From a virus: 64,000 nt of DNA. Position 1 is the stretch's first letter. Every line of letters begins with the position of its first letter. The notes under the pieces were generated by a model. It did no database searches and was not told the DNA's origin. It saw nothing but the letters and a program-made list of their open reading frames with translations. Of this stretch, positions 246 to 13,160 are shown piece by piece. The position numbers were made by a program, and so were the translations under genes. The DNA lies in the IMG/VR virus record IMGVR_UViG_3300045988_074874; one strand, 5' to 3'.

Positions 246-839
246 GTGAAAGATAATGCTATAAAAACAGAAAAGGAAACAGAAGTATATTTAAGCAATA
301 TTAATATATATGCTGATGAATATATTAATACAGTGTTATGTGTATCACCTGATAGTGAGAACTACAGAAAAGAAGTAGCTGACAGTTTTGTTGATATGAT
401 TTTTTATATCGCTGATCACATACAGAAACCTAGTAACGATGATATAGAATTATTAGATCATATGTTTAGCGTGTTTGTAAGGTTGTGCAGTAAGTATCAT
501 GTTTTGCCAACTCTGGAAGTATTTAGCTTTCTGGTAGGAATTAACCGTTCAACGTTTAGCGATTGGATGCGTGGGGATTATAGAACTGCCACAGCACATA
601 GCAACACGGTGAAAAAATGGTTCGATATTTGCAAAAACTGTACGCTTAATAGATTGCATAACCAGCCCGGAACAAATGCAAACTTAATTTTCGTAGCAAA
701 AGCTGCTTACGGCATGGCAGAGACGGCACCAATTCCAGCAGGACAGCAACAGGGCATACCACAGCAGACAGCGCAGCAGATCGCAGACAAGTACAAGGAT
801 GTTCTGGAGCTTCCAGAGATGGAAAAGCCGGAGTTATAA
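246..839 (+). CDS. terS: terminase small subunit-like protein (GTG start)
   Basis: 197 aa; C-terminal NANLIFVAKAAYGMAE matches the G-x-IF-x-LKN-x-GW signature of Terminase_2-type small subunits; RBS AAGTGAGGTGA; unusually far (8.5 kb) from terL. Confidence 0.45.
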   Translation: MKDNAIKTEKETEVYLSNINIYADEYINTVLCVSPDSENYRKEVADSFVDMIFYIADHIQKPSNDDIELLDHMFSVFVRLCSKYHVLPTLEVFSFLVGINRSTFSDWMRGDYRTATAHSNTVKKWFDICKNCTLNRLHNQPGTNANLIFVAKAAYGMAETAPIPAGQQQGIPQQTAQQIADKYKDVLELPEMEKPEL

Positions 840-1039
840 CAGCGTGGAACGTACACAAGATTGTTGAAATGTACGCAGATGGCGAACAAACAGACCGAAA
901 AGCGGTAGACATGGCAGTATTTAGTAAATATGCACATATATAACAGTTGAATTTGTGCATGATGTATAGCAGTCTATTTAAAAAACAAGTGTTTATTAAA
1001 TAGATGTAATATTCTGAAAATTGATACGCATTATAATTC

Positions 1040-1270
1040 CCTTGATTACCGCCGAAGGTATCCGAAAAACAGCGTTAAGACCGGGACAACGGGAACCCAT
1101 GGGGCAAAGGGTTGCCCGGTCAGCGTCACCAGAGACAGACCCGGGAGGGGGGTGTATATGGATGCCCCGAACGGCCTAATGAGTGCCCCGACCGCCCCAA
1201 AATTTAAAAAACGCCCTTTTAACAACAATCCCTCAACATGGCAGAGATAGTGATTGCAACATAACAAGCC
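1040..1270. other. GC-rich (~58% GC) structured non-coding element; candidate ncRNA or packaging site
   Basis: Compositional island in a ~37% GC genome; local hairpins such as GGGCAA-AGGG-TTGCCC and runs of GGGAGGGGGG/GCCCC; no plausible + strand ORF. Confidence 0.3.
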
Positions 1271-1322
1271 GTAAGCCTTAACGATTGATAATCACTGACA
1301 TCCGCAGAAAGGAAGGCACAAG

Positions 1323-1532
1323 ATGGAAAAAATAGTAAACAACGATGGTTATCTTCGGTCAGGCTTAATGGATATTGCCAGACAACTACTGAATGTCTGT
1401 AGTGAAACTGGAGTTTCCAATATTCAGATAGTCACATCTCCTTGGAAAGAGGGTAAAGGCATTACTCTTTTAGCGAAAACTGATGACAAACCGATTCTTT
1501 CAGTAAAGATGGATACTGCCTATGAAAAATAA
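1323..1532 (+). CDS. hypothetical protein (69 aa)
   Basis: ORF with RBS GAAAGGAAGG upstream; no recognisable motif. Confidence 0.4.
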   Translation: MEKIVNNDGYLRSGLMDIARQLLNVCSETGVSNIQIVTSPWKEGKGITLLAKTDDKPILSVKMDTAYEK

Positions 1533-1671
1533 TAATCCTCAAGGCGAATCCATCCGCATCCGGTTGCCGTACCAGCTAGAACGAAAACTCATAGCTGAGA
1601 AAAACCGAACCGGCAAGAGTGTATCACAGGTCACTCGTGAAGCATTGGAACAATATTTTCGAAAGAGGTAG
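1522..1671 (+). CDS. ribbon-helix-helix (CopG/Arc-like) DNA-binding protein, 49 aa
   Basis: Translation MKNNNPQGESIRIRLPYQLERKLIAEKNRTGKSVSQVTREALEQYFRKR is a typical RHH beta-strand plus two helices; overlaps the stop of the upstream ORF; below the 60-aa cutoff of the ORF track. Confidence 0.4.
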   Translation: MKNNNPQGESIRIRLPYQLERKLIAEKNRTGKSVSQVTREALEQYFRKR

Positions 1672-1675
1672 ACAG

Positions 1676-2119
1676 ATGTCTTTGCTTGAAAAATTTTTCA
1701 AAAATAAAAAAGGCTTTCAGGAAAAACTTGAGATGCATCCGCTTGAAAAACCTTTAATGCATGACAAGGTATATGAGTATCATCACAAGAAAGCTGTTCT
1801 GGAGGACGGAAGACTGTACGATACAGAATCGGCAAAAAAGGTTTTTACGGACGAATCAAGCTTGAAATATATCTCGTTTGGAGTAAGCACGCAAAGGGTT
1901 TATTTCTTAACTCCGAATAGGCATTGGTTCTCAGCTGAAGAGAGAATCGAAACTGAAAGTGGAATAACTGATGTTGGCGAATGCCGTATACAGGTTACTA
2001 AAACAATTTTTGTGTATAGCAATCTTCGAATGGAAAAAACACACAGAGTCAAAGATCTGATTGGCAAAAACGATTATGAATTATACAAGAAATATTTTGG
2101 GGAGGCAGAGGAAGCATGA
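1676..2119 (+). CDS. hypothetical protein (start moved to internal ATG with RBS AGAGGT)
   Basis: In frame with table ORF 1619-2119; the start at 1676 follows the RHH stop and a good RBS. Confidence 0.45.
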   Translation: MSLLEKFFKNKKGFQEKLEMHPLEKPLMHDKVYEYHHKKAVLEDGRLYDTESAKKVFTDESSLKYISFGVSTQRVYFLTPNRHWFSAEERIETESGITDVGECRIQVTKTIFVYSNLRMEKTHRVKDLIGKNDYELYKKYFGEAEEA

Positions 2120-2475
2120 ATAGTAACAAGAAAGTTTATTATGTGTACGTAGAAAACGGAAAAGCAGTTATTACAGAGGAAGCACCGGACTTCGATAAAG
2201 TTCACGATTACATGCTAGTGAAAGCGGATGGAATCGAGCTTTTTATGGGAGTACATAAGAACCAGGACGATTTGATGCTTCCAGATGAACCGATTGACGT
2301 AGCGACTATGTTGATTAATGCCGAAGCAAGTGTTGATTTAGGGGATAAAGGACCATTAACTTGCCCGAAATACGACCCAAATCAGCTCAGAGAGATTGCA
2401 GAACATCTTCTAGCGTATTGCAATGCACAAGAAAGGGGATGTGTAGATGCCTGTTGTAAGAATTGTGAACCCTAA
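2116..2475 (+). CDS. hypothetical protein; paralog of 4865-5170 (shared C-terminal L-x-QIA-x-HLL-x-YC motif)
   Basis: C-terminus LREIAEHLLAYC compared with LKQIAKHLLIYC in ORF 4793-5170. Confidence 0.5.
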   Translation: MNSNKKVYYVYVENGKAVITEEAPDFDKVHDYMLVKADGIELFMGVHKNQDDLMLPDEPIDVATMLINAEASVDLGDKGPLTCPKYDPNQLREIAEHLLAYCNAQERGCVDACCKNCEP

Positions 2476-2830
2476 ACCGTATGATTGGGCTGGAACTAAA
2501 TGCCTTATTGATGGTAAAACGATTCCAAGAGTGAAATCAGTGGATTTTCATGTTTCTGTTGACGAGGTTCCGACATTTGTATTCGAGATGATGGCAGAGC
2601 CGGATATTAAAATGGAGTGCTTGGCACAAATCAGTTTCACTTCTAAATCAATTACTGATGCAATTTCAGTTTTAAGGCATGAACTGTTACAACACGGGGA
2701 AATTTACCACGGCTTCAAAGCAAGCCTAAAATCGGCTTTAATTGCTTATAATTCATGTGGCTTACCATTTGAGCCGGAAGAAGAAATCGCAGAGAAGATA
2801 CTTAATTTCATGATTGGAGAGGAACAATGA
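2447..2830 (+). CDS. hypothetical protein
   Basis: ORF, RBS GAAAGGGG. Confidence 0.45.
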   Translation: MPVVRIVNPKPYDWAGTKCLIDGKTIPRVKSVDFHVSVDEVPTFVFEMMAEPDIKMECLAQISFTSKSITDAISVLRHELLQHGEIYHGFKASLKSALIAYNSCGLPFEPEEEIAEKILNFMIGEEQ

Positions 2831-3270
2831 GATTACCATTATCGCAGTAGCAATTAATATTCTGATATTTACTACATTAGCTGCATTTTTAATGAGCCGG
2901 AATTACAAAGGCAATCAATTTTCCACAGCATTCTTCTTGCTGATGGAAGCAGGAATGATACTTAATACAGTTTTGATTTGCACAGCGAGGTAAAAATATG
3001 CTTTTAGCATTTCCTACGAGGATTATTCCGTTTTTTATCATAGAACGGGTTAAACCTATAATTAAACCGGAAGGATACGCTTACCCGATTGTGGAGCGGT
3101 ACGCAAGCAAATATTCTTTACATCCGACTTAGCGTTAAAAAATTTCTGTAGTCGATTATATTAAATTTGATTTCCTCCACATATATTGTTTGCATTACAG
3201 AAATAGTAATTATATCACACACAATTCTTTCTCCTGCTTTTGTGATGGTGCGGAGTGGGAGAAAGATTTT

Positions 3271-3342
3271 AGGGCTATCGCCAAAAGGTAAGGTAACGGA
3301 CTTTGATTCCGTCATGTGTGGGTTCGAATCCCACTAGCCCCG
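3271..3342 (+). tRNA. tRNA-Gln (anticodon TTG)
   Basis: Hand-folded cloverleaf: acceptor AGGGCTA/TAGCCCC, anticodon stem ACGGA/TCCGT with loop CTTTGAT, T-arm GTGGG-TTCGAAT-CCCAC. Confidence 0.55.
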
Positions 3343-3398
3343 TTTGCTAGGTTGCGCATGTACCTGGCAATGGTTTATTTCACATAGACCCTCCGATA

Positions 3399-3451
3399 CC
3401 CATCTAGCTCAACGGAGCTGATTAAAGGGGCTTCAAATGTCCCGGATGGGA
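3399..3451 (+). other. tRNA-like mini-element lacking an anticodon arm (acceptor + D-like hairpin + T-arm)
   Basis: 7-bp acceptor CCCATCT/GGATGGG, hairpin AGCTC-AACG-GAGCT, T-arm GGGGC-TTCAAAT-GTCCC; only 53 nt. Confidence 0.35.
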
Positions 3452-3572
3452 ATCCTCGTAAAAACGAGGTACTCTATTTTGCCATGACCTTTGTTGCGGC
3501 TGGTGGCAAAGAACTGCAACAGTAGAAGCAAATCAACTCAAAATCTGCAATCCGGGAGACTGCTTCTACTCA

Positions 3573-3645
3573 GGAAATTTAGTTCAGCGGTTAGAACGCC
3601 CGGCTCATAACCGGGAAGCCCTGAGTTCGAATCTCAGAATTTCCA
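3573..3645 (+). tRNA. tRNA-Met/fMet/Ile2 (anticodon CAT)
   Basis: Clean cloverleaf: GGAAATT acceptor, GTTC-AGCGGTTAGAAC D-arm, CCCGG-CTCATAA-CCGGG anticodon arm, CTGAG-TTCGAAT-CTCAG T-arm. Confidence 0.8.
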
Positions 3646-4022
3646 TTTCTTCCGTATGCTACCCATCCGTTTTATGGGCAGAAAAAACTTTCGGATGAGC
3701 GTATGTGAATCAGAATGAGCAAAGGTATGTAACGGCATAGGCTTGTGCTTGATCTGATTTCCCGTCCGATAAATGCTTCTTAGTTTCAATAAGTCATCAT
3801 AAGTGCACGTTGATGGCAGGGAGTTTTCAAGAAGCATAAAGTTAAAAGGCATAATAATATCCGAAACAACTCCGTGGAGCATACCACGGTTACCAAAAAG
3901 CCGTCAGGTTGGCAAAAATACGATAGTCCAAGTTATGAAAAATTGCCTAGTGGAAAGCATAACACGAAAAAATCATTGCTAACCCGGAACAATCTCCGGG
4001 TTCTGGGGGAATAATACCATAA

Positions 4023-4075
4023 GGGGCAGAGGGCTGATTAACAGTACCAGAGCGGTTCAACTCCGCATTCTCCCA
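4023..4075 (+). other. possible second anticodon-arm-less tRNA-like element
   Basis: GGGGCAG acceptor-like 5' end, GCTG-ATTAA-CAGT hairpin, GCGG-TTCAACT-CCGC T-arm-like, TTCTCCC 3' end; pairing imperfect. Confidence 0.25.
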
Positions 4076-4175
4076 TTATCCAATCTGTAAATATTGGATA
4101 TGAGGAAGCTGTCCGAGATGTAAGAAACAGTCGGCTTGTGGATTGCCGGTACAAATACGCTGAAAATCCACACAA

Positions 4176-4247
4176 GGCAGGGTAGAGAAGTGGAATCTCA
4201 CAAGACTCATATTCTTGAGAACGGCGGTTCGAATCCGCCTCCTGCAA
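4176..4247 (+). tRNA. tRNA with CAT anticodon (Met/Ile2 type), G1-A72 mismatch
   Basis: GAGA-AGTGGAA-TCTC D-arm, CAAGA-CTCATAT-TCTTG anticodon arm, GGCGG-TTCGAAT-CCGCC T-arm, acceptor GGCAGGG/TCCTGCA. Confidence 0.55.
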
Positions 4248-4532
4248 CTTAATCCGCTTAGAGTTAAGTTGTTTGTATACAGGCGGTCTATGCCTCTGGT
4301 GGATTTACGCATGAGCGTAAACGTACAACTCACTAGGCGTTTGCGTAAAAAACTTTTTAGAGAGATGAGACCACTGGCCGTAAGAAGTGATAGTCGGCAA
4401 TTCTAAAAGAACCATCTAGTTCATGCGTTTTACGATGGAAAGGTTAATGCTTATCTGGATATTTGTGTCCAGTCCGAAAGCATATGAAGTGAAAATCAAC
4501 TCAGTTTTTTTAACTGACCGTGACAAGCGGTA

Positions 4533-4601
4533 CGGAATGTAGCTCAGGTGGGAGAGCGCACTACAAAAGTGAGGTCGCAGGTTCGAATCCTGCCTTTCCG
4601 A
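4533..4601 (+). ncRNA. tRNA-like RNA with truncated/non-canonical anticodon arm (69 nt)
   Basis: Canonical acceptor, D-arm (GCTC-AGGTGGGA-GAGC) and T-arm (GCAGG-TTCGAAT-CCTGC) but only 18 nt where 21-22 are needed, giving a 3-4 bp anticodon stem and a 5-7 nt loop. Confidence 0.4.
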
Positions 4602-4654
4602 TTCCTGCGGATTGCCATCGTAGGAATAAATTACTCCTAAGGTATAGTTTGGTT

Positions 4655-4706
4655 TCCAGTACTCCACGTTGGGTGGCTAGTTACGGTTCAAGTCCGTGTG
4701 CTGGAA
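4655..4706 (+). other. tRNA-like mini-element lacking an anticodon arm
   Basis: Acceptor TCCAGTA/TGCTGGA (extendable to 8 bp), CCAC-GTTGG-GTGG hairpin, T-arm TACGG-TTCAAGT-CCGTG; 52 nt. Confidence 0.35.
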
Positions 4707-4728
4707 TTTTTGTTTAGAGAGGTGGCTT

Positions 4729-4908
4729 ATGGAAGAAAAAAATTATTGTTGTACATGTAAATGGTACGCACTGGAAGAAGGAGTCTGCTGTAATGGTGAA
4801 AGCGAACATCGTGCAGATTTCAGATGCCTTGATGATAGTTGTGAATGTTGGGAGGGTATTGAAAATGACAGAACAAGAAGTAAAGAAAATGACAGAAGAT
4901 TTATCTGA
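4729..4908 (+). CDS. small Cys-rich protein (59 aa, putative Zn-binding)
   Basis: ATG with RBS AGAGAGGTGG; ten cysteines in CxC/CC spacing (CCTCKWY...VCCNG...CLDDSCEC). Confidence 0.35.
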   Translation: MEEKNYCCTCKWYALEEGVCCNGESEHRADFRCLDDSCECWEGIENDRTRSKENDRRFI

Positions 4909-5170
4909 TTATAAAAAAGTTTTTTCGGAGTTAGAAAAAAGATGCAGCCAAGGAGCATTAGAATACTGGAATCGCCATTTATGGTATGGGATTACGATTC
5001 AGTCCAATAAAGAAGCGGCATCGCCAAAGGATGGCGAGCCTCCTAAACAACCTTTGAAATTAGTAGATTGGCTGATTGACAGAGGATTAAAAGATGGGAT
5101 CCGATTATACGGAAAGAATGAGCTTAAACAAATCGCCAAACATCTTTTAATTTATTGTGAGGATGAATAA
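4865..5170 (+). CDS. hypothetical protein, paralog of 2116-2475 (start at internal ATG with RBS GGGAGGG)
   Basis: In frame with table ORF 4793-5170; C-terminal conserved motif shared with 2116-2475. Confidence 0.45.
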   Translation: MTEQEVKKMTEDLSDYKKVFSELEKRCSQGALEYWNRHLWYGITIQSNKEAASPKDGEPPKQPLKLVDWLIDRGLKDGIRLYGKNELKQIAKHLLIYCEDE

Positions 5171-5334
5171 TGCAAATAGCAGGAAAAGAAATTAAAGACG
5201 AGTGTTCCAGATGCGGAAATATCCTTGAATGCGAGTTGTTCCGCCAGGGACATGGAATAAAACAGGAACGTGAGAATGTAGCAAAGATGATCGAGTGTCA
5301 GATGAAACATAGGGAGGAAAGGAGTAAATTATGA
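5170..5334 (+). CDS. small CxxC protein (54 aa)
   Basis: ATG overlaps the upstream stop (TAATG); CSRCGN...C motif; below ORF-track cutoff. Confidence 0.3.
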   Translation: MQIAGKEIKDECSRCGNILECELFRQGHGIKQERENVAKMIECQMKHREERSKL

Positions 5335-5421
5335 CATATGATTTATTGAACAGAAGAATGTGTCCGCTATCCGGGATAACTACGACATGGAAATATTTAC
5401 CAAGATTTGAGGGAGGATGCC

Positions 5422-5781
5422 ATGAGAATTGAAGATTTGAAAAATTGGACAGTAGATCAGCTGAAAGAAGAAGTTGTTCGGTTGGCTGATGAGAGCGAAG
5501 CAAAGCAACATGAAATTCTGAACAAAAATAAGAAAATCAATGAGCTTCAGGATAAACTGGATAATATGCGTGCTTATAATAACGAGTTAAAAAGACAGGT
5601 GGACGAAAAGGCAGATACACCATTTTACGACGAATCTATAGAAATCGCAAAATATCACAGGCGGCATGAGTCCGATTGCATTACAATCAATCAGCTTCAG
5701 ACTGCATTGGACGTACTTGTTGACCGATATGCAACTCTGAGAAAGATTCATGGGGTGAGTTTATATGGGGGAGAAAAATAA
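5422..5781 (+). CDS. coiled-coil hypothetical protein
   Basis: RBS GAGGGAGGA; heptad-rich sequence. Confidence 0.5.
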   Translation: MRIEDLKNWTVDQLKEEVVRLADESEAKQHEILNKNKKINELQDKLDNMRAYNNELKRQVDEKADTPFYDESIEIAKYHRRHESDCITINQLQTALDVLVDRYATLRKIHGVSLYGGEK

Positions 5782-6067
5782 TCCTTGTTTTTACATTGGA
5801 GAACAGAGCGACAGCTTGCAAGAACTTTCTGAAATAGAAGATATATCAGATAATTCTTCGGAGAATAACAAACATATGCCAGATTTATTTGGACACAAAA
5901 ATAAATTTAAAGTTGACATTCCTTTCTTTATAAGCCCGTATGACAGAAGAAGACTATATGAATTGGTGTTTGGAATTTACTTAACCAACAATGACCGTAA
6001 AATGCACGGAGAACCTATGATACGCAGAATTGCAGGACGAAAAGAAGTGAGAAAACGTGAAAGATAA
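5765..6067 (+). CDS. hypothetical protein with basic C-terminal KMHG-x4-IRRIAGRK motif
   Basis: ORF; motif repeated in the next ORF. Confidence 0.45.
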   Translation: MGEKNNPCFYIGEQSDSLQELSEIEDISDNSSENNKHMPDLFGHKNKFKVDIPFFISPYDRRRLYELVFGIYLTNNDRKMHGEPMIRRIAGRKEVRKRER

Positions 6068-6329
6068 TATGCGTCTACGTAATATTCCTTGGATAGAAAC
6101 TGTACCAAAAAAATATTTTTCTCCGTTAATGAACGATATGTGTATTGTTCCGTATTGTAATAATTATCTTAAAATGCATGGAAAGCACAAAATAAGACAG
6201 ATTGCCGGGAGAAAGAGAAAAAGAAAATTCAATAATCAATTCAGTAAAAACATAAGAAGTAAAATGAGAATTTATCTCAAACGGAAACATAAAGGTATTA
6301 AACATAAAAAGAATAGGAGATTAACGTGA
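6057..6329 (+). CDS. highly basic small protein sharing the KMHG...IRQIAGRK motif
   Basis: ORF; Lys/Arg-rich, nucleic-acid-binding flavour. Confidence 0.45.
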   Translation: MKDNMRLRNIPWIETVPKKYFSPLMNDMCIVPYCNNYLKMHGKHKIRQIAGRKRKRKFNNQFSKNIRSKMRIYLKRKHKGIKHKKNRRLT

Positions 6330-6559
6330 GCATCAAATCAGCATTTGAATCTGAGGGGATAGATTTTTCTCAGGTAATGAATCCACCGGAGCCGTGGGAC
6401 GGACGGGCATTAATAAAAAATATCAATGGCAAACTGTGGTATTGTTGTCCTTTTTGTGAAAAGAAAGCACTTCTAATTAGCCCAGAGACAAAAATTCGGC
6501 ATCTTAAATTGAAATGCAAGGGTAGCAACTGCAAGAAAGAGTTTGAGGTGAATGTATGA
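6326..6559 (+). CDS. zinc-finger protein, Mu Com-like
   Basis: CCPFC ... KLKCKGSNCKK arrangement resembles Com-type Zn fingers. Confidence 0.4.
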   Translation: MSIKSAFESEGIDFSQVMNPPEPWDGRALIKNINGKLWYCCPFCEKKALLISPETKIRHLKLKCKGSNCKKEFEVNV

Positions 6560-7134
6560 GTACTTGTTATGATTGTGCATACTCAAAAATTGAAACCAAT
6601 GGTAGTCGCAGATTTCTTTCTTGTGGGATTTTTACAAAATATTTCCATGTTCCGTTCTCGTTTCCAACACCAGATATATGTGATGTATTTCGAAAACGAA
6701 GCGGATTCTCCGCATTAGAAGTATTTACTCCTGAGGAAAAAGAGAAATACTTCGCAATATATCGGAAATTACCTTCGTATAATCCAGATGTAAGTCCAGA
6801 AGAATTTTTCAAAGGAATGGACAGCGGATTTTTCGGGATATATCCGAAAAACACTTCGGACATTGTTAAAGCTATTGATTCTATAAAGGTGCCTGATGAA
6901 GATGTTATTAAAACAGTTGCCAGCGATGCGGAAGAACTTCAAAAAACTAAACCTGTGGAACTGGACGAACTTTCGGAAGAAACCAAGTTTAGAATTTATA
7001 AATTAATTGTAAATGAAATTGGAAAGCATTTTTACAATTGCGAGATGCGTATGTCATATAAAGACTTTATACTTGTTGAGGATTGCATCAGAAAAGTTTT
7101 GCAAGGAGAACAAGATGAACACAAAACGGATTAA
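6556..7134 (+). CDS. hypothetical protein
   Basis: ORF, translationally coupled to upstream gene. Confidence 0.5.
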   Translation: MSTCYDCAYSKIETNGSRRFLSCGIFTKYFHVPFSFPTPDICDVFRKRSGFSALEVFTPEEKEKYFAIYRKLPSYNPDVSPEEFFKGMDSGFFGIYPKNTSDIVKAIDSIKVPDEDVIKTVASDAEELQKTKPVELDELSEETKFRIYKLIVNEIGKHFYNCEMRMSYKDFILVEDCIRKVLQGEQDEHKTD

Positions 7135-7291
7135 ATGTATTCTGACAGGTGGTTGCAAGTTCAAAAGTTCGGATACAGAATCGAAATGTAATGATAAAGA
7201 AAAGACTTGCACTATTACGGAAACTTGTTACAAATGCGGGAAGAAGTATACAGCGGTATTTACTTACAAACAATTAGGTATTCCAGATTGA
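7115..7291 (+). CDS. small Cys-rich protein (58 aa)
   Basis: Internal ATG with RBS AAGGAGAA; CxxC/CxxxC pairs. Confidence 0.35.
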   Translation: MNTKRIKCILTGGCKFKSSDTESKCNDKEKTCTITETCYKCGKKYTAVFTYKQLGIPD

Positions 7292-7300
7292 GGTTAATGT

Positions 7301-7621
7301 ATGAGCAAATATTTTGTAGTAAATTTTCCAATAAAGATTTTTGCTAAAGACAAAAAAGTTGTCGATGCGTTGGCAAATATTGATGTGTACCATGAAAAAG
7401 ATAAGAGAATTATTTTTGTAGAATTTGTCACACTTTATACTGTTTTTCCAAAAGAATGTGTTTTTGAAATAGGATATCTTAAAAAGAAATTCAAATTCTT
7501 ACATGTTGAGCCACACGTATCTGATTCTGGACTATATAAAATAAAAATTCAATATAAACGAGAAGAAGATATAAAAGAAAAAGATGAGTGGTGGGATTCA
7601 CTTAGAAGTATTGTGAGGTGA
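7301..7621 (+). CDS. hypothetical protein
   Basis: ORF. Confidence 0.5.
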   Translation: MSKYFVVNFPIKIFAKDKKVVDALANIDVYHEKDKRIIFVEFVTLYTVFPKECVFEIGYLKKKFKFLHVEPHVSDSGLYKIKIQYKREEDIKEKDEWWDSLRSIVR

Positions 7622-7625
7622 GTAA

Positions 7626-8210
7626 ATGAAAAAGATACCAACATTATTTGAGCGAGAATTTAAAGACCATAAGGTTGTAAAGGTTCTTCCGAAAGTGCAT
7701 CCGGGCATGGAATGGGTACTTAAAGGAGAAGGTGTTGCAACAGTCAAATACGACGGTTCTTGCTGCGCGATAATTGACGGAGAATATTATAAAAGATATG
7801 ACTGCAAGAAAGGCAAGATACCACCAGAGGGATTTATTCCTTGTTGCAAACCAGATTCCATTACAGGTCACTGGCCGGGATGGGTAAAGGTTGATGAGAA
7901 TAATCCGTCTGATAAGTGGTTTTTGAAAGCGTATAGTCCGATAAAAGGAAATGTAACAATTTATCTAGCTAACGGAACATACGAAGCAATAGGAAAATAT
8001 TTCTGCGGAAATCCGTACAATATGGATTACGATACACTTGTTAAACATGGCGACGAAATCGTTAAAGTTGAAAGAACATTCGAAGGAATCAAGAAATATC
8101 TTTCCGAACACAAGATAGAGGGATTAGTTTTCTGGAAAGACGGAAGCCCACAATGTAAAATCAAGCGTTCAGATTTTGGCTTTGAATGGCCAGTAAAGGG
8201 GAATTTATGA
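7626..8210 (+). CDS. minimal nucleotidyltransferase of the ATP-dependent RNA/DNA ligase superfamily
   Basis: Motif I VKYDGS (Rnl-type KxDGS), motif IV EGLVFW, motif V CKIKRSDF; only 194 aa. Confidence 0.4.
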   Translation: MKKIPTLFEREFKDHKVVKVLPKVHPGMEWVLKGEGVATVKYDGSCCAIIDGEYYKRYDCKKGKIPPEGFIPCCKPDSITGHWPGWVKVDENNPSDKWFLKAYSPIKGNVTIYLANGTYEAIGKYFCGNPYNMDYDTLVKHGDEIVKVERTFEGIKKYLSEHKIEGLVFWKDGSPQCKIKRSDFGFEWPVKGNL

Positions 8211-8371
8211 ATCCAGTATTTATATTTCTAGTGATATGCGGAGCAGTGGCAGTATGGTTTCTGCTTTACAAATTATTTCAGCCACTAGGTAAATTATTGA
8301 ATCACATTGGCAAAAATGCCATTGATGAGTTAAATAAAGATGAAAGTCAAAATAAGGAGGACAAAGAATGA
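8207..8371 (+). CDS. small membrane protein (54 aa)
   Basis: RBS AAAGGGGAA; single TM helix VFIFLVICGAVAVWFLLY. Confidence 0.35.
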   Translation: MNPVFIFLVICGAVAVWFLLYKLFQPLGKLLNHIGKNAIDELNKDESQNKEDKE

Positions 8372-9321
8372 AAAAAGGACTTTTAGGTGGAATTGGATTA
8401 GCTGTTGTAATCATTGCAGGACTTATATGCGTTGCAAAGTGTAGTGTAAAGGTTCCAGCCGGTTACATTGCGGTCGAGTACAAAATGAACGGGGGAATCT
8501 CCAAGAATGTACTTACGCAGGGGTGGCATTTGATTTCACCTACAGTAAAAACTTCACTGTATTCTGTTGGAATCGAACAGTCTTATCTTACATCTGAAGA
8601 TAAAGGCGATTCTCCAAAAGATGAAAGTTTCAAGACACCAACGGCAGATGGCAAATCTCTTTTAGTTGATTTGGAATTTTCGTATAAATTCGATCAGAAC
8701 AGAGTAACTGATGTATTTACTCAGTTTAAAGGTCAATCCGGGGAATCTGTAAAAAACACCTTTATTAAGCCGAAAATGAAAGCATGGACGCAGGAAGTAA
8801 CTGCGAAGTATCCAGTAACAGATGTTTTCGGTGATAAGCGTCAGGAACTGAATGAAGCACTTGACGAATATCTTAAACGGAAGTTTGAACCATACGGAAT
8901 CATTATTGATACAGTAAACTTTACTTCTATTTCCACTGATGATGAAACACAAGCTGCAATCCAAAAGAAAGTAAATGCACAGCAAGAGCTTGAATTGGCC
9001 AATATTGAAGCTAAAACAGCCAAAGTACAAGCCGATAAAGATAAAGAAGTTGCACTGATTGCTGCTGAACAGGAAAAAGAAAAAGCAGCTATTCAGGCAG
9101 AACAAGCCAAAATTGATGCAGAAGGTAAAGCCGAAGCGATTAAGATTAAAGCTGAAGCCGAAGCGGAAGCAAATAGAAAAATTGCAGAATCACTTACTCC
9201 TGAACTGATTGAAAAACAGAAAATTGATAAATGGGATGGTGAAGTTCCGAAGATTCAGGGAAGTAACACTTCTACCATCGTAGACACAAGAGATATGACA
9301 GCCGATGAGAATGCTGAATAA
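8368..9321 (+). CDS. SPFH/band-7 (prohibitin/flotillin-like) membrane protein
   Basis: N-terminal TM helix, SPFH core, Ala/Glu/Lys-rich coiled-coil tail typical of the family. Confidence 0.7.
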   Translation: MKKGLLGGIGLAVVIIAGLICVAKCSVKVPAGYIAVEYKMNGGISKNVLTQGWHLISPTVKTSLYSVGIEQSYLTSEDKGDSPKDESFKTPTADGKSLLVDLEFSYKFDQNRVTDVFTQFKGQSGESVKNTFIKPKMKAWTQEVTAKYPVTDVFGDKRQELNEALDEYLKRKFEPYGIIIDTVNFTSISTDDETQAAIQKKVNAQQELELANIEAKTAKVQADKDKEVALIAAEQEKEKAAIQAEQAKIDAEGKAEAIKIKAEAEAEANRKIAESLTPELIEKQKIDKWDGEVPKIQGSNTSTIVDTRDMTADENAE

Positions 9322-9395
9322 TAAATAAATCAGTCAGAGAGCCACATGAGAGCCAGACTAAATCCTAAAAAGAAAGGAGGTCTGGCTCTATTTTT

Positions 9396-11132
9396 ATGCA
9401 AAAATTCACAGAAGGTTCGCTTGAATGGTATCGGGCAATTTTAAATCAAATCATTAATGATGATATGACAGTCTGTCAAAATCAGAAGGACTGCCTTGAT
9501 TTACTTTTGAATATGAATATTGACCTTCCTTTCAAGGATAATCCAGATGCACGGAATATGGCAATGAAAGTCAGCCGGTACGCTCATACAACTGCGGCAA
9601 GAAACGCGGCACTGACTGGAAGCGGTAATTTTGATGATATTTACTGGCAGTATTTATTATTGGAAGCACAGAACTATCAGGTTGACAGCGGGCTTCTTTA
9701 CCTTGAAAAGAACCGAATCCCGAAAGAACGATTCTATGAACCACGAAGAAATGTGTTCTTGCAGCATAACATCATAGGTTCACTGCAAGACCTGATGGAT
9801 GACAAATTAGATATATTTGCATTAAGCGTACCTCCGGGTTGTGGAAAGAGTACTCTGGAAGATTTCTTTTTATCATTGGTAGGTGGATGGTTCCCGAATG
9901 ACTTTAACCTGTCTTCGGCACACAGTAGCATTCTGACACGTTCCCTTTATGATGGTGTTCTGGAAATTATCAATGATCCCGTGGAATACACGTGGCATGA
10001 GATATTCCCTAACGTAGAAATTCAAGGAACAAATGCAAAGGAAACTACAGTCAATCTCGAAAGAAACGGACGATTTAAGACATGGACATTTCGTTCTATT
10101 GATGGCTCTTTGACTGGTGCCACTAGATGCAATAGATTCCTTACTGCCGATGACCTTGTGTCTGGTATTGAAGAAGCTTTGAATAAGAACCGACTTGATA
10201 CCCTGTGGACAAAAGTGGTAAATGACTTGCGTTCCCGTAGACTTGAGGGATGCAAAGAGTTTTATATTGCCACCAGATGGTCAGTACATGACCCTATCGG
10301 AAAACTGCAACAACTATATGCCGGAAACCCACGGGCAAGGTTTATTGCAGTTCCAGCACTTGATGAAAACGGAAAGAGCAATTTTCTGTTTACGGTAAAT
10401 GGATTCTCAGAGAAATATTTCAATGATGCTAAAGAATCCATGGATGAAATTTCTTACAACTGTCTTTATCAGCAACAGCCGGTAGAACGTGAGGGATTAT
10501 TATTACCACCGGACAAATTAAAACGATTCTTTTTCAGTAAAGAAGACGTGCCGGATGGATGCGCGGATGAATACATTATCATTCCAGATAAAGATGCAGA
10601 TGCGATATGGGCGGTATGTGATACAAAAGATAAAGGAACTGACTTCGAATCATTACCGATTGCATACCAATACGGAGATAAATTCTTCTTTCCCGATGTG
10701 GTGTTTGATGACACTACAGACTATGACATTTTGGATAGAAAGACAGCAGATATTTTGGTAAGACATAACCCACATAAGATTCGTTTCGAATCAAATAATG
10801 TCGGAAACCGTGTGGCACACAATATCCAGAAAATGATTACCGGAAAGTGTCGAGCTGAAATTGAGACAAAACCAACGTCAGCAAATAAAGAAACAAAGAT
10901 TCTTGTAAATTCGGACTATATAGCAAAACATTTTTATTTTCTGCATCCAAGTCAGTACAAAGCAAAGTCTGATTACGGATTGTTTATGGCTAATGTAACT
11001 ACGTACACTACTAGGGCAAAAGTACCACATGATGACGGAATCGATTCTTTGGCTATGATGGCTGAGTACATACAAAATCCATTAGGTGGTAAAGCAACGG
11101 CAATGCAGAATCCATTTTGGGGAAGGAGATAG
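9396..11132 (+). CDS. terL: terminase large subunit
   Basis: 578 aa; Walker A LSVPPGCGKST, nuclease-domain acidic motifs (ATRWSVHD, DDGIDSL), position upstream of portal. Confidence 0.85.
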   Translation: MQKFTEGSLEWYRAILNQIINDDMTVCQNQKDCLDLLLNMNIDLPFKDNPDARNMAMKVSRYAHTTAARNAALTGSGNFDDIYWQYLLLEAQNYQVDSGLLYLEKNRIPKERFYEPRRNVFLQHNIIGSLQDLMDDKLDIFALSVPPGCGKSTLEDFFLSLVGGWFPNDFNLSSAHSSILTRSLYDGVLEIINDPVEYTWHEIFPNVEIQGTNAKETTVNLERNGRFKTWTFRSIDGSLTGATRCNRFLTADDLVSGIEEALNKNRLDTLWTKVVNDLRSRRLEGCKEFYIATRWSVHDPIGKLQQLYAGNPRARFIAVPALDENGKSNFLFTVNGFSEKYFNDAKESMDEISYNCLYQQQPVEREGLLLPPDKLKRFFFSKEDVPDGCADEYIIIPDKDADAIWAVCDTKDKGTDFESLPIAYQYGDKFFFPDVVFDDTTDYDILDRKTADILVRHNPHKIRFESNNVGNRVAHNIQKMITGKCRAEIETKPTSANKETKILVNSDYIAKHFYFLHPSQYKAKSDYGLFMANVTTYTTRAKVPHDDGIDSLAMMAEYIQNPLGGKATAMQNPFWGRR

Positions 11133-11133
11133 C

Positions 11134-11556
11134 ATGGATATAAAGGAATATCTGAATCAAATTCAACGATATGAAAAAGTTATAAATAACAAACTGGAAG
11201 AAATCGAACACTTAAAATTGCTTGCTACTAGCATTAGTGCTTCGACGTATGGCATTGAACGCGTTCAAACTTCTGGAAGCCAAGATAAAATAGGCGATAC
11301 AATTGCAAAATTGGTGGATGCGCAGCGTGAACTGGCTGATAATGTGGTAGAACTTATGGATAAGAAGCAGAAACTTATAGATGTTATAGAGTCTGTGAAA
11401 AATCCCCAGTATTATGATTTTTTGTATAAACGATACGTAGAGGGAAAAAAGCTAACTGTCATTGCAGATGAAATGGAATACAATGAAGAATATATTAAAC
11501 AATTCCACGGGAAAGCAGTAAATTACGTAAAAGAAATGATTAATTTCAAAAGTTAG
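11134..11556 (+). CDS. putative late-gene regulator (ArpU/RinA or sigma region-4-like)
   Basis: 140 aa from ATG at 11134 (RBS GGGGAAGGAGAT); coiled-coil N-terminus and C-terminal HTH-like segment; sits directly before the first copy of the conserved motif. Confidence 0.35.
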   Translation: MDIKEYLNQIQRYEKVINNKLEEIEHLKLLATSISASTYGIERVQTSGSQDKIGDTIAKLVDAQRELADNVVELMDKKQKLIDVIESVKNPQYYDFLYKRYVEGKKLTVIADEMEYNEEYIKQFHGKAVNYVKEMINFKS

Positions 11557-11597
11557 CACCTTTTCTTACTGAATATAACTTTCCGATTATGTATAAT
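11555..11597 (+). promoter_or_regulatory. conserved motif AGCACCTTTTCTTACTGAATATAAC + 12 nt + TATAAT (copy 1 of 3), candidate late promoter
   Basis: Near-identical 25-mer at 23082 and diverged copy at 35641; each follows a stop codon and precedes a structural operon. Confidence 0.45.
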
Positions 11598-11672
11598 ATA
11601 TGATGAAAATGTATGAAGCATCGGGTGAAAACTCGGTGCTTTTTTCATGTCTAAAAATAGGAGGTATAGGCA

Positions 11673-13160
11673 GTGGGAAGAAACAAAAGCAATTTTGTTG
11701 ACCTATGCCAAGGCGATTTTGGCAGAAAAACTGCCTACACTGGCGTAGCTCAAATTACTACCGAAAATGTTGTTCAAGTTCTATCTGATACGATTGGTAC
11801 ACATAATCGAAACAGAATGATGATTAATTATCTTTATCGGTACTACAAAGGCGACCAACCAATCTTATATCGGGAAAAGCTTGTGAGACCGGAAGTAAAT
11901 AATAGAGTTGTCGAAAATCACGCTCTGGAAGTTGTCAAGTTTAAGGCAGGACAAATATATGGAGAACCTATTCAATATGTCTGCAAAAAGAAAAAAGCAG
12001 ATAAAAAGATAAATGAGCAGGTCGACCTGCTGAATGATTATCTGGACGAAGCAAATGCGGATGCCCGAAATATTCAGCTTGGAATATACCAGAGTGCCGT
12101 AGGAACTGCATACAAGGCAATTCTACGAGAAGACGATTGGACAAAAGACCGTGATTTACCACCATTTAGAATTTTTATTCCGTATCCGGGAGATGTTTAT
12201 ATTGTTTATTCCAGAAACACAGGAAAAGCAATGCTATCTGTTCAAATATTGAAAGATGAAGAGAATCAGCAATATTATCTTTGCTATTCTTCAAATCAAT
12301 ATTTCAAGATAAAGAACGGACAAGTAACCGTCAGCGGCATTAATGGCTTTGGCGGAATCCCAATTATCGAGTATCCAAACAACCATGACCGGCTATCTGA
12401 TGTCGAAATTGCAATTACAGCATTTGATGCGATCAACAAGTATCAGTCGGATAGATTAAACGGTGTTGAACAGTTTGTTCAAGCATTTATGAAATTCAAA
12501 AACTGTGAAGTTGACGAGAATGAATTTTTGAAAATGGTCAAGCTAGGAGCAATATCTGTAAAAGATGCTGGAAACGGTGTTCAGTCAGATGTTGACTTGA
12601 TGACTGCGGAATTAAACCAGTCGGAGAGCCAAGTTGCTAAAGACGACATTTACAATAATATGCTGATTGTAGAAGCAATGCCAAACCGCCAGAGCAACAC
12701 CGGTGGTGATACTGGTAATGCTGTATATTTGCGTAATGGATGGGATTTTGCAGAGCGAGATGCCAAACTTGTTGAAGCATTCACAAAAGAAGCCGAAAAA
12801 GCTTCTGTCAGAATTATTCTCAACATCATTCGCAAAACCTCCAATGATGTCAAGATTTCTACCAGAGATTTTGATGTCAAAATCACCAGAAACCCAACAG
12901 ATAACATGCTTGTTAAAGCACAGGCACTTGATTATCTGTTCAAGAATAAAATTCACCCGCTTATTGCATTGATTACTTGTGGATTATTCAGCGATCCGCA
13001 AAAGGTATATGAAATGAGCTTACCATATCTTGGAACTGTTTATCCCGAACTGGCAAACCCAGACGCAGAAATGAAGAAAGCACAAGAATTGATTAAAGAT
13101 TTTAGTCAGAAATCAATTCAAAATCAATCAGCAACAATTTCTTCCACTGGTGAAGAATAG
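11673..13160 (+). CDS. portal protein (SPP1 gp6-like), GTG start
   Basis: 495 aa, immediately after terL; portal-like size and composition. Confidence 0.7.
   Translation: MGRNKSNFVDLCQGDFGRKTAYTGVAQITTENVVQVLSDTIGTHNRNRMMINYLYRYYKGDQPILYREKLVRPEVNNRVVENHALEVVKFKAGQIYGEPIQYVCKKKKADKKINEQVDLLNDYLDEANADARNIQLGIYQSAVGTAYKAILREDDWTKDRDLPPFRIFIPYPGDVYIVYSRNTGKAMLSVQILKDEENQQYYLCYSSNQYFKIKNGQVTVSGINGFGGIPIIEYPNNHDRLSDVEIAITAFDAINKYQSDRLNGVEQFVQAFMKFKNCEVDENEFLKMVKLGAISVKDAGNGVQSDVDLMTAELNQSESQVAKDDIYNNMLIVEAMPNRQSNTGGDTGNAVYLRNGWDFAERDAKLVEAFTKEAEKASVRIILNIIRKTSNDVKISTRDFDVKITRNPTDNMLVKAQALDYLFKNKIHPLIALITCGLFSDPQKVYEMSLPYLGTVYPELANPDAEMKKAQELIKDFSQKSIQNQSATISSTGEE

Follow-up and report, generated by a model that had tools for sequence, protein, structure and literature searches.

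A variable cargo region between a terS-like gene and terL in a lineage of gut phages

Phages differ in how closely they keep the genes of their small (terS) and large (terL) terminase subunits together. In P22, gene 3 adjoins gene 2 (terL). In T7, genes 18 (terS) and 19 (terL) are separated by 18.5/18.7, a precedent for terminase genes that do not abut. The human-gut phage IMGVR_UViG_3300045988_074874, analysed here over a stretch of 64,000 nt (the window, whose numbering is used throughout), carries its terS-like gene 8.5 kb away from terL; where T7 has two small fixed genes, its lineage has a variable bay of 6 to more than 10 kb, with about 20 genes and tRNAs. The locus is best explained, with good confidence, as a lineage-wide split of terS and terL by a bay of cargo genes within one operon, headed by an open reading frame (ORF) at 246-839 that would be a genuine small terminase, highly divergent in sequence and P22 gp3-like in fold.

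The nearest described arrangement is that of Clostridium phage Maintenon (ON453900); this cultured relative has [Clostridium] innocuum as its host and a TerL 42.5% identical to that of the window. Its terS was annotated by the depositors and lies 2.65 kb from terL, with about 12 small ORFs and the genes for tRNA-Trp, tRNA-Gln and tRNA-Met in between, an interval of the same type as in the window. However, the Maintenon interval is three times shorter, and RNA ligase, RtcB and SPFH genes are not annotated there. The Maintenon split is annotated but not discussed in the literature found, and a literature search for a cargo bay between terS and terL returned nothing specific.

Two further comparisons are useful. 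T4 has a tRNA cluster together with RNA repair enzymes (Rnl1/Pnkp) that act against the PrrC anticodon nuclease. The present lineage is T4-like in that one region combines tRNA genes with the gene of an RNA ligase, either Rnl-like or RtcB; in this region one tRNA scaffold occurs with altered anticodon arms. Unlike in T4, no polynucleotide kinase/phosphatase partner was identified in the window system. The second comparison is with the hypervariable regions of phages (morons, plasticity regions and anti-defence clusters), which are alike in their variable content and co-oriented small orphan genes, and the relatives of the window phage likewise carry counter-defence families and homing endonucleases. 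In contrast to these regions, the bay lies inside the packaging pair and not in the early region or at the end of a module, and it has a tRNA array and a sharply conserved scaffold. Variable accessory regions are already well known in phages, and the bay is a tidy example of them that brings no new mechanism. The novelty lies in the terS assignment and in where the bay is placed, how large it is, how its scaffold is built and what it contains, across a large gut-phage family.

In the first 13 kb of the window (1-13 kb) every plausible gene lies on the + strand, and the two ORFs named as terminase genes in the preliminary description of this DNA are both present as claimed:

246-839, + strand: terS, putatively the small terminase subunit, divergent in sequence and P22 gp3-like in fold (197 residues, GTG start)
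9396-11132, + strand: terL, the large terminase subunit (578 residues; phrog_38, E 7e-50 over residues 125-569)

From the stop of terS to the start of terL there are 8,556 nt, the two genes being on the same strand and apparently in one transcription unit. The interval (840-9395) contains about 20 plausible protein ORFs and four matches to the tRNA model (Gln, two CAU and one aberrant), which comes close to the earlier count of about 25 protein and RNA genes. Judged by its sequence, the large terminase is a solid call. Apart from the phrog_38 match, the Walker A motif PPGCGKST can be read in the translation, and the nuclease domain scores 23.9 bits with Terminase-T7_RNaseH-like (cut-off 27) and 35.6 bits with TIGR01630 (cut-off 41.65).

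Is the split an artefact of one assembly? The same arrangement is seen in 42 independent IMG/VR contigs in which terS and terL are both complete, and these form the main comparison set. In all 42, terS lies 5.8-9.4 kb upstream of terL, and in other related loci it is truncated at, or lies beyond, the 10-kb flank. The TerL relatives in IMG/VR number 323, with genomes of about 75-84 kb. A GenBank phage nucleotide search returned just two short fragments, both unannotated. Among GenBank genomes, the 84.7-kb gut phage MT835477 has a split of 8.2 kb, with a TerL 79% and a TerS 47% identical to those of the window. The Eggerthella phage EL753P1 (L082, OP172808) has a split of 6.3 kb with nrdD, thymidylate synthase and endolysin genes inside; the terS-family profile finds its ORF 1842-2678 (E 4e-7), which is hypothetical by annotation, and its terL is unannotated. 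Relatives borne on metagenome-assembled genomes have 6.8 kb (L085), 3.5 kb (L087) and 1.7 kb (L088) between the two genes. The separation of terS and terL is an old, lineage-wide trait and not a peculiarity of the window phage. Contigs assigned by binning to Blautia, Acetatifactor, Pseudobutyrivibrio and other Clostridia, among them one of 230 kb, also carry TerL relatives. The lineage probably consists of gut phages of Clostridia (Lachnospiraceae/Blautia), and the Clostridia-binned contigs, the 230-kb one included, suggest a Lachnospiraceae host and possibly a temperate lifestyle.

The ORF at 246-839 had been described as terS-like, and the evidence from its fold, its homologs, phage Maintenon and its C-terminal tail agrees. 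In the PDB, the sole strong fold match of the protein model is the P22 small terminase (gp3, 3P9A), and the protein thus folds like a solved TerS; against BFVD, 11 of the 15 best Foldseek matches are named small terminase or DNA-packaging protein, gp3 being named as well. P22 gp3 (PF16677; PHROG 606) is the nearest solved relative, although the sequences are only 7% identical, and the window protein differs from it by an N-terminal extension of about 85 residues and a C-terminal third modelled with low confidence. By sequence, the ORF has a weak match to a PHROG terS family (phrog_606, E 0.003), and PDB sequence-profile searches with two alignments of it gave chance-level matches only. A possible DNA-binding helix-turn-helix (HTH) region is suggested by a conserved PTLEVFSFLVGINRSTFSDW motif and by predicted helices at residues 90-97 and 101-109. 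An exhaustive HMMER search yielded 272 representative homologs, clustered at 50% identity. The profile check recommended at the outset has accordingly given a divided answer: no Pfam family is found for the ORF directly, but its distant homologs do match terminase families, 32 of 104 full-length ones hitting PHROG 606 (best E 4e-10) and four of the 104 hitting Pfam GP3_package (PF16677). Compared with the annotated TerS of phage Maintenon, which itself matches several PHROG terS families, the family profile gives an hhalign probability of 95.6% (E 1e-8). The identity of the gene is a matter of profile and fold, from which we infer its role in packaging.

Several observations nevertheless pull in the other direction. 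Searches of ORF 246-839 against Pfam, NCBIfam and PADLOC found zero families above the curated threshold. Confidence in the model is moderate (mean predicted local distance difference test score, pLDDT, 68) and low for residues 140-197. One source labels a homolog as a “bacterial regulatory protein.” Most contigs with very distant homologs are too short for an analysis of gene order; on the one long contig, L096 (a metagenome contig, 5247-11893), a terS-like gene 27% identical to that of the window is followed by a tRNA array, which again begins with tRNA-Gln(UUG), eight small ORFs and the portal gene, and no homolog of the window TerL lies between the terS-like gene and the portal. There the terS-like gene shows no obvious link to a terL. 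In this lineage, either terL has moved to a different site or the TerL in use is not homologous. Finally, no pac or cos site was located. Several contigs end 50-660 nt upstream of terS, but they do so at differing nucleotides, and thus no physical genome terminus can be inferred near the gene.

These points leave some room for a different reading, in which ORF 246-839 has a terminase-like fold but is an HTH regulator or DNA-binding protein heading the late operon, the real TerS lying elsewhere in the approximately 78-kb genome or being unneeded. The missing curated family, the source label and the gene order of L096 would all fit, as would the place of the ORF directly after a promoter-like site and a terminator, which is typical of the first, regulatory gene of an operon. 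A few homologs also match generic HTH families of Pfam. However, the fold matches are P22 gp3 and the small terminases of BFVD, not repressors; one third of the homologs match a PHROG terS family; the annotated TerS of Maintenon is homologous; and the C-terminal tail tracks the TerL lineage across 8 kb of mosaic DNA. In addition, no other conserved ORF near terL is TerS-like. The related suggestion, that the true TerS would be a small ORF just upstream of terL, is not supported, as the preceding gene differs among relatives, being RtcB, SPFH, a membrane protein or a small ORF. The conserved gene that follows terL (11134-11556) was tried as a TerS as well, and a fold search with it returned only generic helical hairpins and sigma factors. 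On this balance a regulator at the head of the operon is unlikely, if not negligibly so.

The assignment of ORF 246-839 as terS gains from its C-terminal end:

747-836, + strand: 30-residue C-terminal tail of TerS (residues 168-197), putatively TerL-binding, with a mosaic junction just upstream

In P22 and other systems, the C-terminus of the small terminase binds the large subunit. Across 41 loci, the identity of the last 30 residues of TerS follows the identity of TerL (Spearman +0.78), whereas that of the body (all but the tail) is anti-correlated with it (Spearman -0.68). A caution applies to the tail correlation, which has few clades behind it and may partly reflect shared ancestry of the block. 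Single loci illustrate the pattern. The TerS of L012 has its last 26 residues identical to those of the window and a body about 18% identical; L003 shares the last 44 residues and has a body about 58% identical, as does L004, also with an identical tail. L035-L037 are the reverse, their bodies being 96-97% identical to that of the window and their tails different (83%). Since the body of the window protein matches L035-L037 and its tail matches L003/L004, the window terS is a natural chimera. The left edge of the variable bay lies inside terS, just ahead of the conserved tail. This pattern suggests that the tail docks onto TerL and stays compatible with it while the body, which would serve DNA recognition and oligomerization, is exchanged as a module.

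The right-hand edge of the bay is sharp:

9331-9395, + strand: invariant junction of 65 nt that leads into terL and anchors the bay on the right, with a hairpin at 9349-9389

All 17 loci inspected have this junction unchanged, regardless of the cassette in front of it, and divergence begins exactly upstream of it. Its hairpin (-23.7 kcal/mol, z -3.95) buries a GGAGG ribosome-binding site and is followed by AUUUUU-AUG. The junction may serve as a terminator or gate the translation of terL.

What lies between the two edges? By a simple ORF call and clustering, the 42 loci contain about 128 ORF families, of which four are present in at least 41 loci: the ribbon-helix-helix (RHH) protein, a 77-residue Zn-ribbon-like protein, a 54-residue Cys protein and a short ORF beside tRNA-Gln that may be no gene at all. 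The other 124 occur in fewer than 41 loci, most of them in fewer than 10 and many in one to five. At the DNA level, 14-74% of 36 relatives can be aligned per 500-nt bin in the interval, compared with 90-100% in terL and most structural genes downstream. The distance from terS to terL varies from 5.8 to more than 10 kb. Variable genes at a fixed position with anchors on both sides are thus found across the 42 loci. The comparison of gene order with related phages, which had been proposed as a check, shows the content of the island to be variable, and the suspicion of a hot spot for accessory genes is supported. The interval is not all cargo, however. A conserved backbone is formed by the RHH gene, tRNA-Gln, tRNA-Met, two small Cys proteins and the junction hairpin.

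In the window, the protein genes of the interval form the following blocks:

1323-2993, + strand: left block of small ORFs (1323-1532; 1522-1671, RHH-like, core; 1676-2119; 2116-2475; 2447-2830; 2814-2993)
4696-7621, + strand: block of small, mostly Cys-rich orphan ORFs, with the core genes 5170-5334 (54 residues) and 6326-6559 (77 residues, Zn-ribbon-like)
7626-8210, + strand: Rnl-like RNA ligase (194 residues; KYDG motif at residues 41-44)
8186-9321, + strand: cassette of a 61-residue transmembrane protein (8186-8371) and an SPFH/Band-7 protein (8368-9321)

The backbone and the cargo are interleaved in these blocks. In the left block, all 42 relatives have the RHH family, and the other families occur in 21-38; in the Cys-rich block, the 6326 family is present in all 42 loci, the 5170 family in 41 and the rest in 1-35. 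The RHH label itself, claimed earlier for 1522-1671, has weak support, as Pfam RHH_1 (E 0.011) falls below the cut-off and an NCBIfam RelB-like family matches at E 0.0012. The Zn-finger and Cys-rich proteins reported before can be recognized in the translations as Cys-rich and Zn-ribbon-like ORFs, but family searches with the ORFs of 4696-7621 gave no significant match. Of the paralogous small proteins, two weak local pairs are left (2116-2475 with 4793-5170 and 5765-6067 with 6057-6329, E about 5e-5).

How much of the interval is cargo could also be judged differently. In an alternative view, most of it would consist of conserved genes of the lineage that are needed for packaging, for assembly of the head or for regulation late in infection, and their rapid divergence would simply reflect their small size. 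The backbone in 41-42 of 42 loci (RHH, the 54-residue and 77-residue Cys proteins, tRNA-Gln and tRNA-Met), the co-oriented genes with overlapping or abutting ends, and the presence of tRNA-Gln(UUG) between terS and terL or after terS even in distant relatives (27-45% TerS identity) are what such a view would predict. Most families are, however, present or absent and not just divergent, as the count of 124 of 128 indicates, and unrelated cassettes (RtcB, Rnl, SPFH, LemA) alternate in one slot. Several cargo types, such as methylase, MazG, Tad2-like proteins, HNH endonucleases and Bro-N/ANT, have well-known non-structural roles. An interval made up mostly of conserved lineage genes is for these reasons improbable.

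It is highly improbable that the interval goes back to a single insertion of a discrete mobile element between the two terminase genes, be it a transposon, an integrative island or a satellite-like insert: in spite of the serine recombinase gene right after terS in 31 of 42 loci and of HNH endonuclease genes in five relatives, no direct or inverted repeats of at least 16 nt bracket the interval in the window, the island is present there without the recombinase, the split occurs at varied sizes down to about 33-45% TerL identity, and the content turns over piecemeal and not as a unit. No empty site with adjacent terS and terL was seen in the 42 complete loci nor in six more distant ones.

In the preferred explanation, that of a terminase pair split by a cargo bay, terS would come first in a transcription unit on the + strand, with terL and a DUF1492 regulator at its end. 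The scaffold kept within it would comprise the TerS tail, a structured RNA, RHH, tRNA-Gln and tRNA-Met, the two small Cys-rich genes and the 65-nt junction hairpin. Cassettes would be swapped between these anchors by homologous recombination among co-infecting relatives, and homing HNH endonucleases, perhaps together with the small serine recombinase, probably assist the exchange. TerS would act in trans, so that terS need not abut terL. The interval would be transcribed along with the packaging genes and, being tolerant of insertions, would accumulate cassettes.

Such cassettes alternate in the slot next to terL. RtcB (Pfam) is found in 16 of 42 loci, in every case as the final gene ahead of terL. 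Nine loci have the Rnl-like ligase, none of them together with RtcB. The gene at 7626-8210, called ligase-like in the preliminary description, is indeed an RNA ligase by profile: it matches phrog_14301 over its full length (E 4e-55) and Pfam RLIG1 above the cut-off (30.3 bits, cut-off 25), the latter partially, in the C-terminal half. Together with the KxDG motif, the profiles place it in the class of ATP-dependent RNA ligases, with a predicted activity of that kind. In L020 the Rnl-like ligase is split into two ORFs (9153-9446 and 9450-9734), by an apparent frameshift or decay, which is consistent with a dispensable cassette. The SPFH gene lies directly before terL in the window, as had been stated, its ORF ending 75 nt from terL (Band_7 E 3e-20, 73.6 bits, cut-off 23.6; phrog_200 E 3e-65), and its product has a hydrophobic N-terminus, GGIGLAVVIIAGLICVA. 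It co-occurs with the transmembrane protein in the same seven of 42 loci, while a pair of LemA and a membrane protein is found in four.

Further families of the bay were assigned with Pfam: Bro-N/ANT in 11 of 42 loci, HNH endonucleases in five, DUF2828-vWA in three, Tad2-like proteins in three, MazG in two and an N6_N4 methylase in one. The small serine recombinase (Resolvase and HTH_7), where present, stands after terS and the GC-rich RNA element described below (e.g., L004 1364-2032); the window is without it, and its 839-1323 region is non-coding. Also in a relative (L055), a Cas5-like ORF of 229 residues upstream of terS (2116-2805) gave a sub-threshold match to Cas_Cas5d (E 0.002, 18.7 bits against 23) that is probably meaningless; the region with this ORF is absent from the window.

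What might the cargo do? Three roles may be proposed. The first would be translation and RNA integrity, served by the extra tRNAs and by RtcB or the Rnl-like ligase as alternatives beside terL. The second would be counter-defence and host takeover, with Tad2-like proteins, MazG, the methylase and Bro-N/ANT, and the third would be that of membrane modules, either the transmembrane protein with SPFH or LemA with its membrane protein. The combination of tRNAs with one of two alternative RNA ligases suggests, by analogy, that the translation apparatus may be protected or repaired against host tRNA nucleases. That phage tRNAs may counter such nucleases is a published hypothesis (PMC10264068). Set against a defensive role is the finding that PADLOC gave zero matches for the SPFH, ligase and small ORFs of the window and that the window cargo includes no recognizable anti-defence gene, its tRNAs and RNA ligase being candidates only.

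The RNA genes of the bay are arranged between the left block and the Cys-rich block:

3270-3343, + strand: tRNA-Gln (UUG), core (ARAGORN; Rfam RF00005, 59.5 bits; 42 of 42 loci)
3573-3645, + strand: tRNA-Met (CAU), core (Rfam, 74 bits; 42 of 42 loci)
4176-4248, + strand: second CAU tRNA, variable, present in some loci only (Rfam, 54.6 bits)
4533-4601, + strand: tRNA-like gene built on the scaffold of a tRNA-Thr, its anticodon arm shrunken (4-nt deletion; Rfam, 48.7 bits)

The first three pass the gathering threshold of RF00005 (29 bits) with a 7-nt anticodon loop. The fourth has an anticodon arm with a 4-bp stem and a 5-nt loop and so lacks the 7-nt loop. Its acceptor, D and T arms are near-identical to those of the tRNA-Thr(UGU) of relatives, the anticodon arm having been replaced. 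The same scaffold carries ACA, AUC or unreadable anticodons in relatives (L030 4857-4925; L035 5035-5105; L071 3812-3887). Such an altered gene could be a pseudogene, a decoy or a variant that escapes nucleases. Around the Gln and Met core, tRNAs for Thr, Tyr, Ser, Arg and Ala are gained and lost among the 42 loci.

Between the tRNA genes there are also tRNA-like fragments (3395-3455, 4046-4075 and 4676-4705). One combines an acceptor stem with D-like and T-like hairpins, the anticodon arm being absent (fold z -1.9); each of the other two is a lone GGTTCAA hairpin resembling a T arm. All three were probably left behind as tRNA genes came and went. The tRNA-like elements noticed at first reading are therefore real, being these tRNA-derived fragments and the tRNA with the shrunken anticodon arm.

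Apart from the junction before terL, three candidate regulatory sites were found at the left of the bay:

73-101, + strand: promoter-like site upstream of terS, read by eye (TTGACA, 17-nt spacer, TG-TTAATA)
146-199, + strand: strong stem-loop followed by U6 in the terS leader, intrinsic-terminator-like (-25.6 kcal/mol, z -6.27)
1037-1195, + strand: conserved GC-rich structured element, unclassified, with a core hairpin at 1079-1121

The TTGACA box (73-78) recurs upstream of terS in relatives, but the site is missing from a consensus promoter scan, so it is a candidate promoter only. None of 200 shuffled sequences was as stable as the 146-199 fold, the inner stem of which was flagged by a terminator scan, and relatives have an analogous GC hairpin and T-run at the same spot before terS. 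A promoter-like box followed by a hairpin (73-199) recalls late operons controlled by antitermination.

With nhmmer, one + strand copy of the GC-rich element is found about 190 nt after terS in 56 loci, and the element is precisely deleted in four. In its core hairpin, 93% of cells are paired, compared with 16-46% in shifted registers; six of the 11 pairs have a compensatory change on both sides, and the G-T pairs fit the + strand only. Folded alone, the core hairpin reaches -22.2 kcal/mol (z -3.45). The whole GC-rich patch (241 nt) folds no better than shuffled sequences (z +0.9), and only the covarying core hairpin stands. A comparison of the element with Rfam gave no match. The patch was considered as a pac site matched to TerS, and it does not co-vary with the TerS allele, which argues against such a site, though not decisively. 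At present one can guess at an antitermination RNA, a processing site or a packaging signal.

Downstream, the terminase unit is closed by two features:

11134-11556, + strand: DUF1492/sigma-region-4-like regulator, placed after terL and before the portal gene (phrog_36, E 2e-19; PF07374 in its homologs)
11615-11642, + strand: strong intrinsic terminator ending the terS-terL unit ahead of the portal gene at 11673-13160 (12-bp stem and T-run; -19.5 kcal/mol, z -5.6)

In Firmicutes phages, DUF1492/sigma-region-4-like regulators are usually located upstream of terS.

A more elaborate model, which is decidedly unlikely, would turn the bay into a gated expression unit. Transcription would start at the promoter and meet three conserved terminator-like hairpins, before terS, over the ribosome-binding site of terL and after the DUF1492 gene. 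The structured RNA after terS would act in cis to let polymerase or ribosomes pass, like the put RNAs of phage HK022, and expression of the cargo, of terL and of the late regulator would follow a set sequence. The tRNA-Thr-derived gene with the shrunken or altered anticodon arm would then be no pseudogene; as a decoy or as a tRNA that resists nucleases, it would cooperate with the alternative RNA ligases.

The bay has consequences for how these phages are read and used. A terS name becomes available for a large and abundant family of phages of gut Clostridia, in which standard profiles leave the protein unnamed. The terS-terL pair, usually treated as an inseparable marker, can host a bay for tens of alternative genes, which affects the automated calling of modules and the prediction of packaging sites. 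The bay also marks a defined site at which to mine genes for counter-defence and translation protection, in phages whose hosts are gut anaerobes that are difficult to culture. The natural TerS chimeras, with swapped bodies and a tail matched to TerL, are in turn a data set on the separation of TerS specificity from TerL docking.

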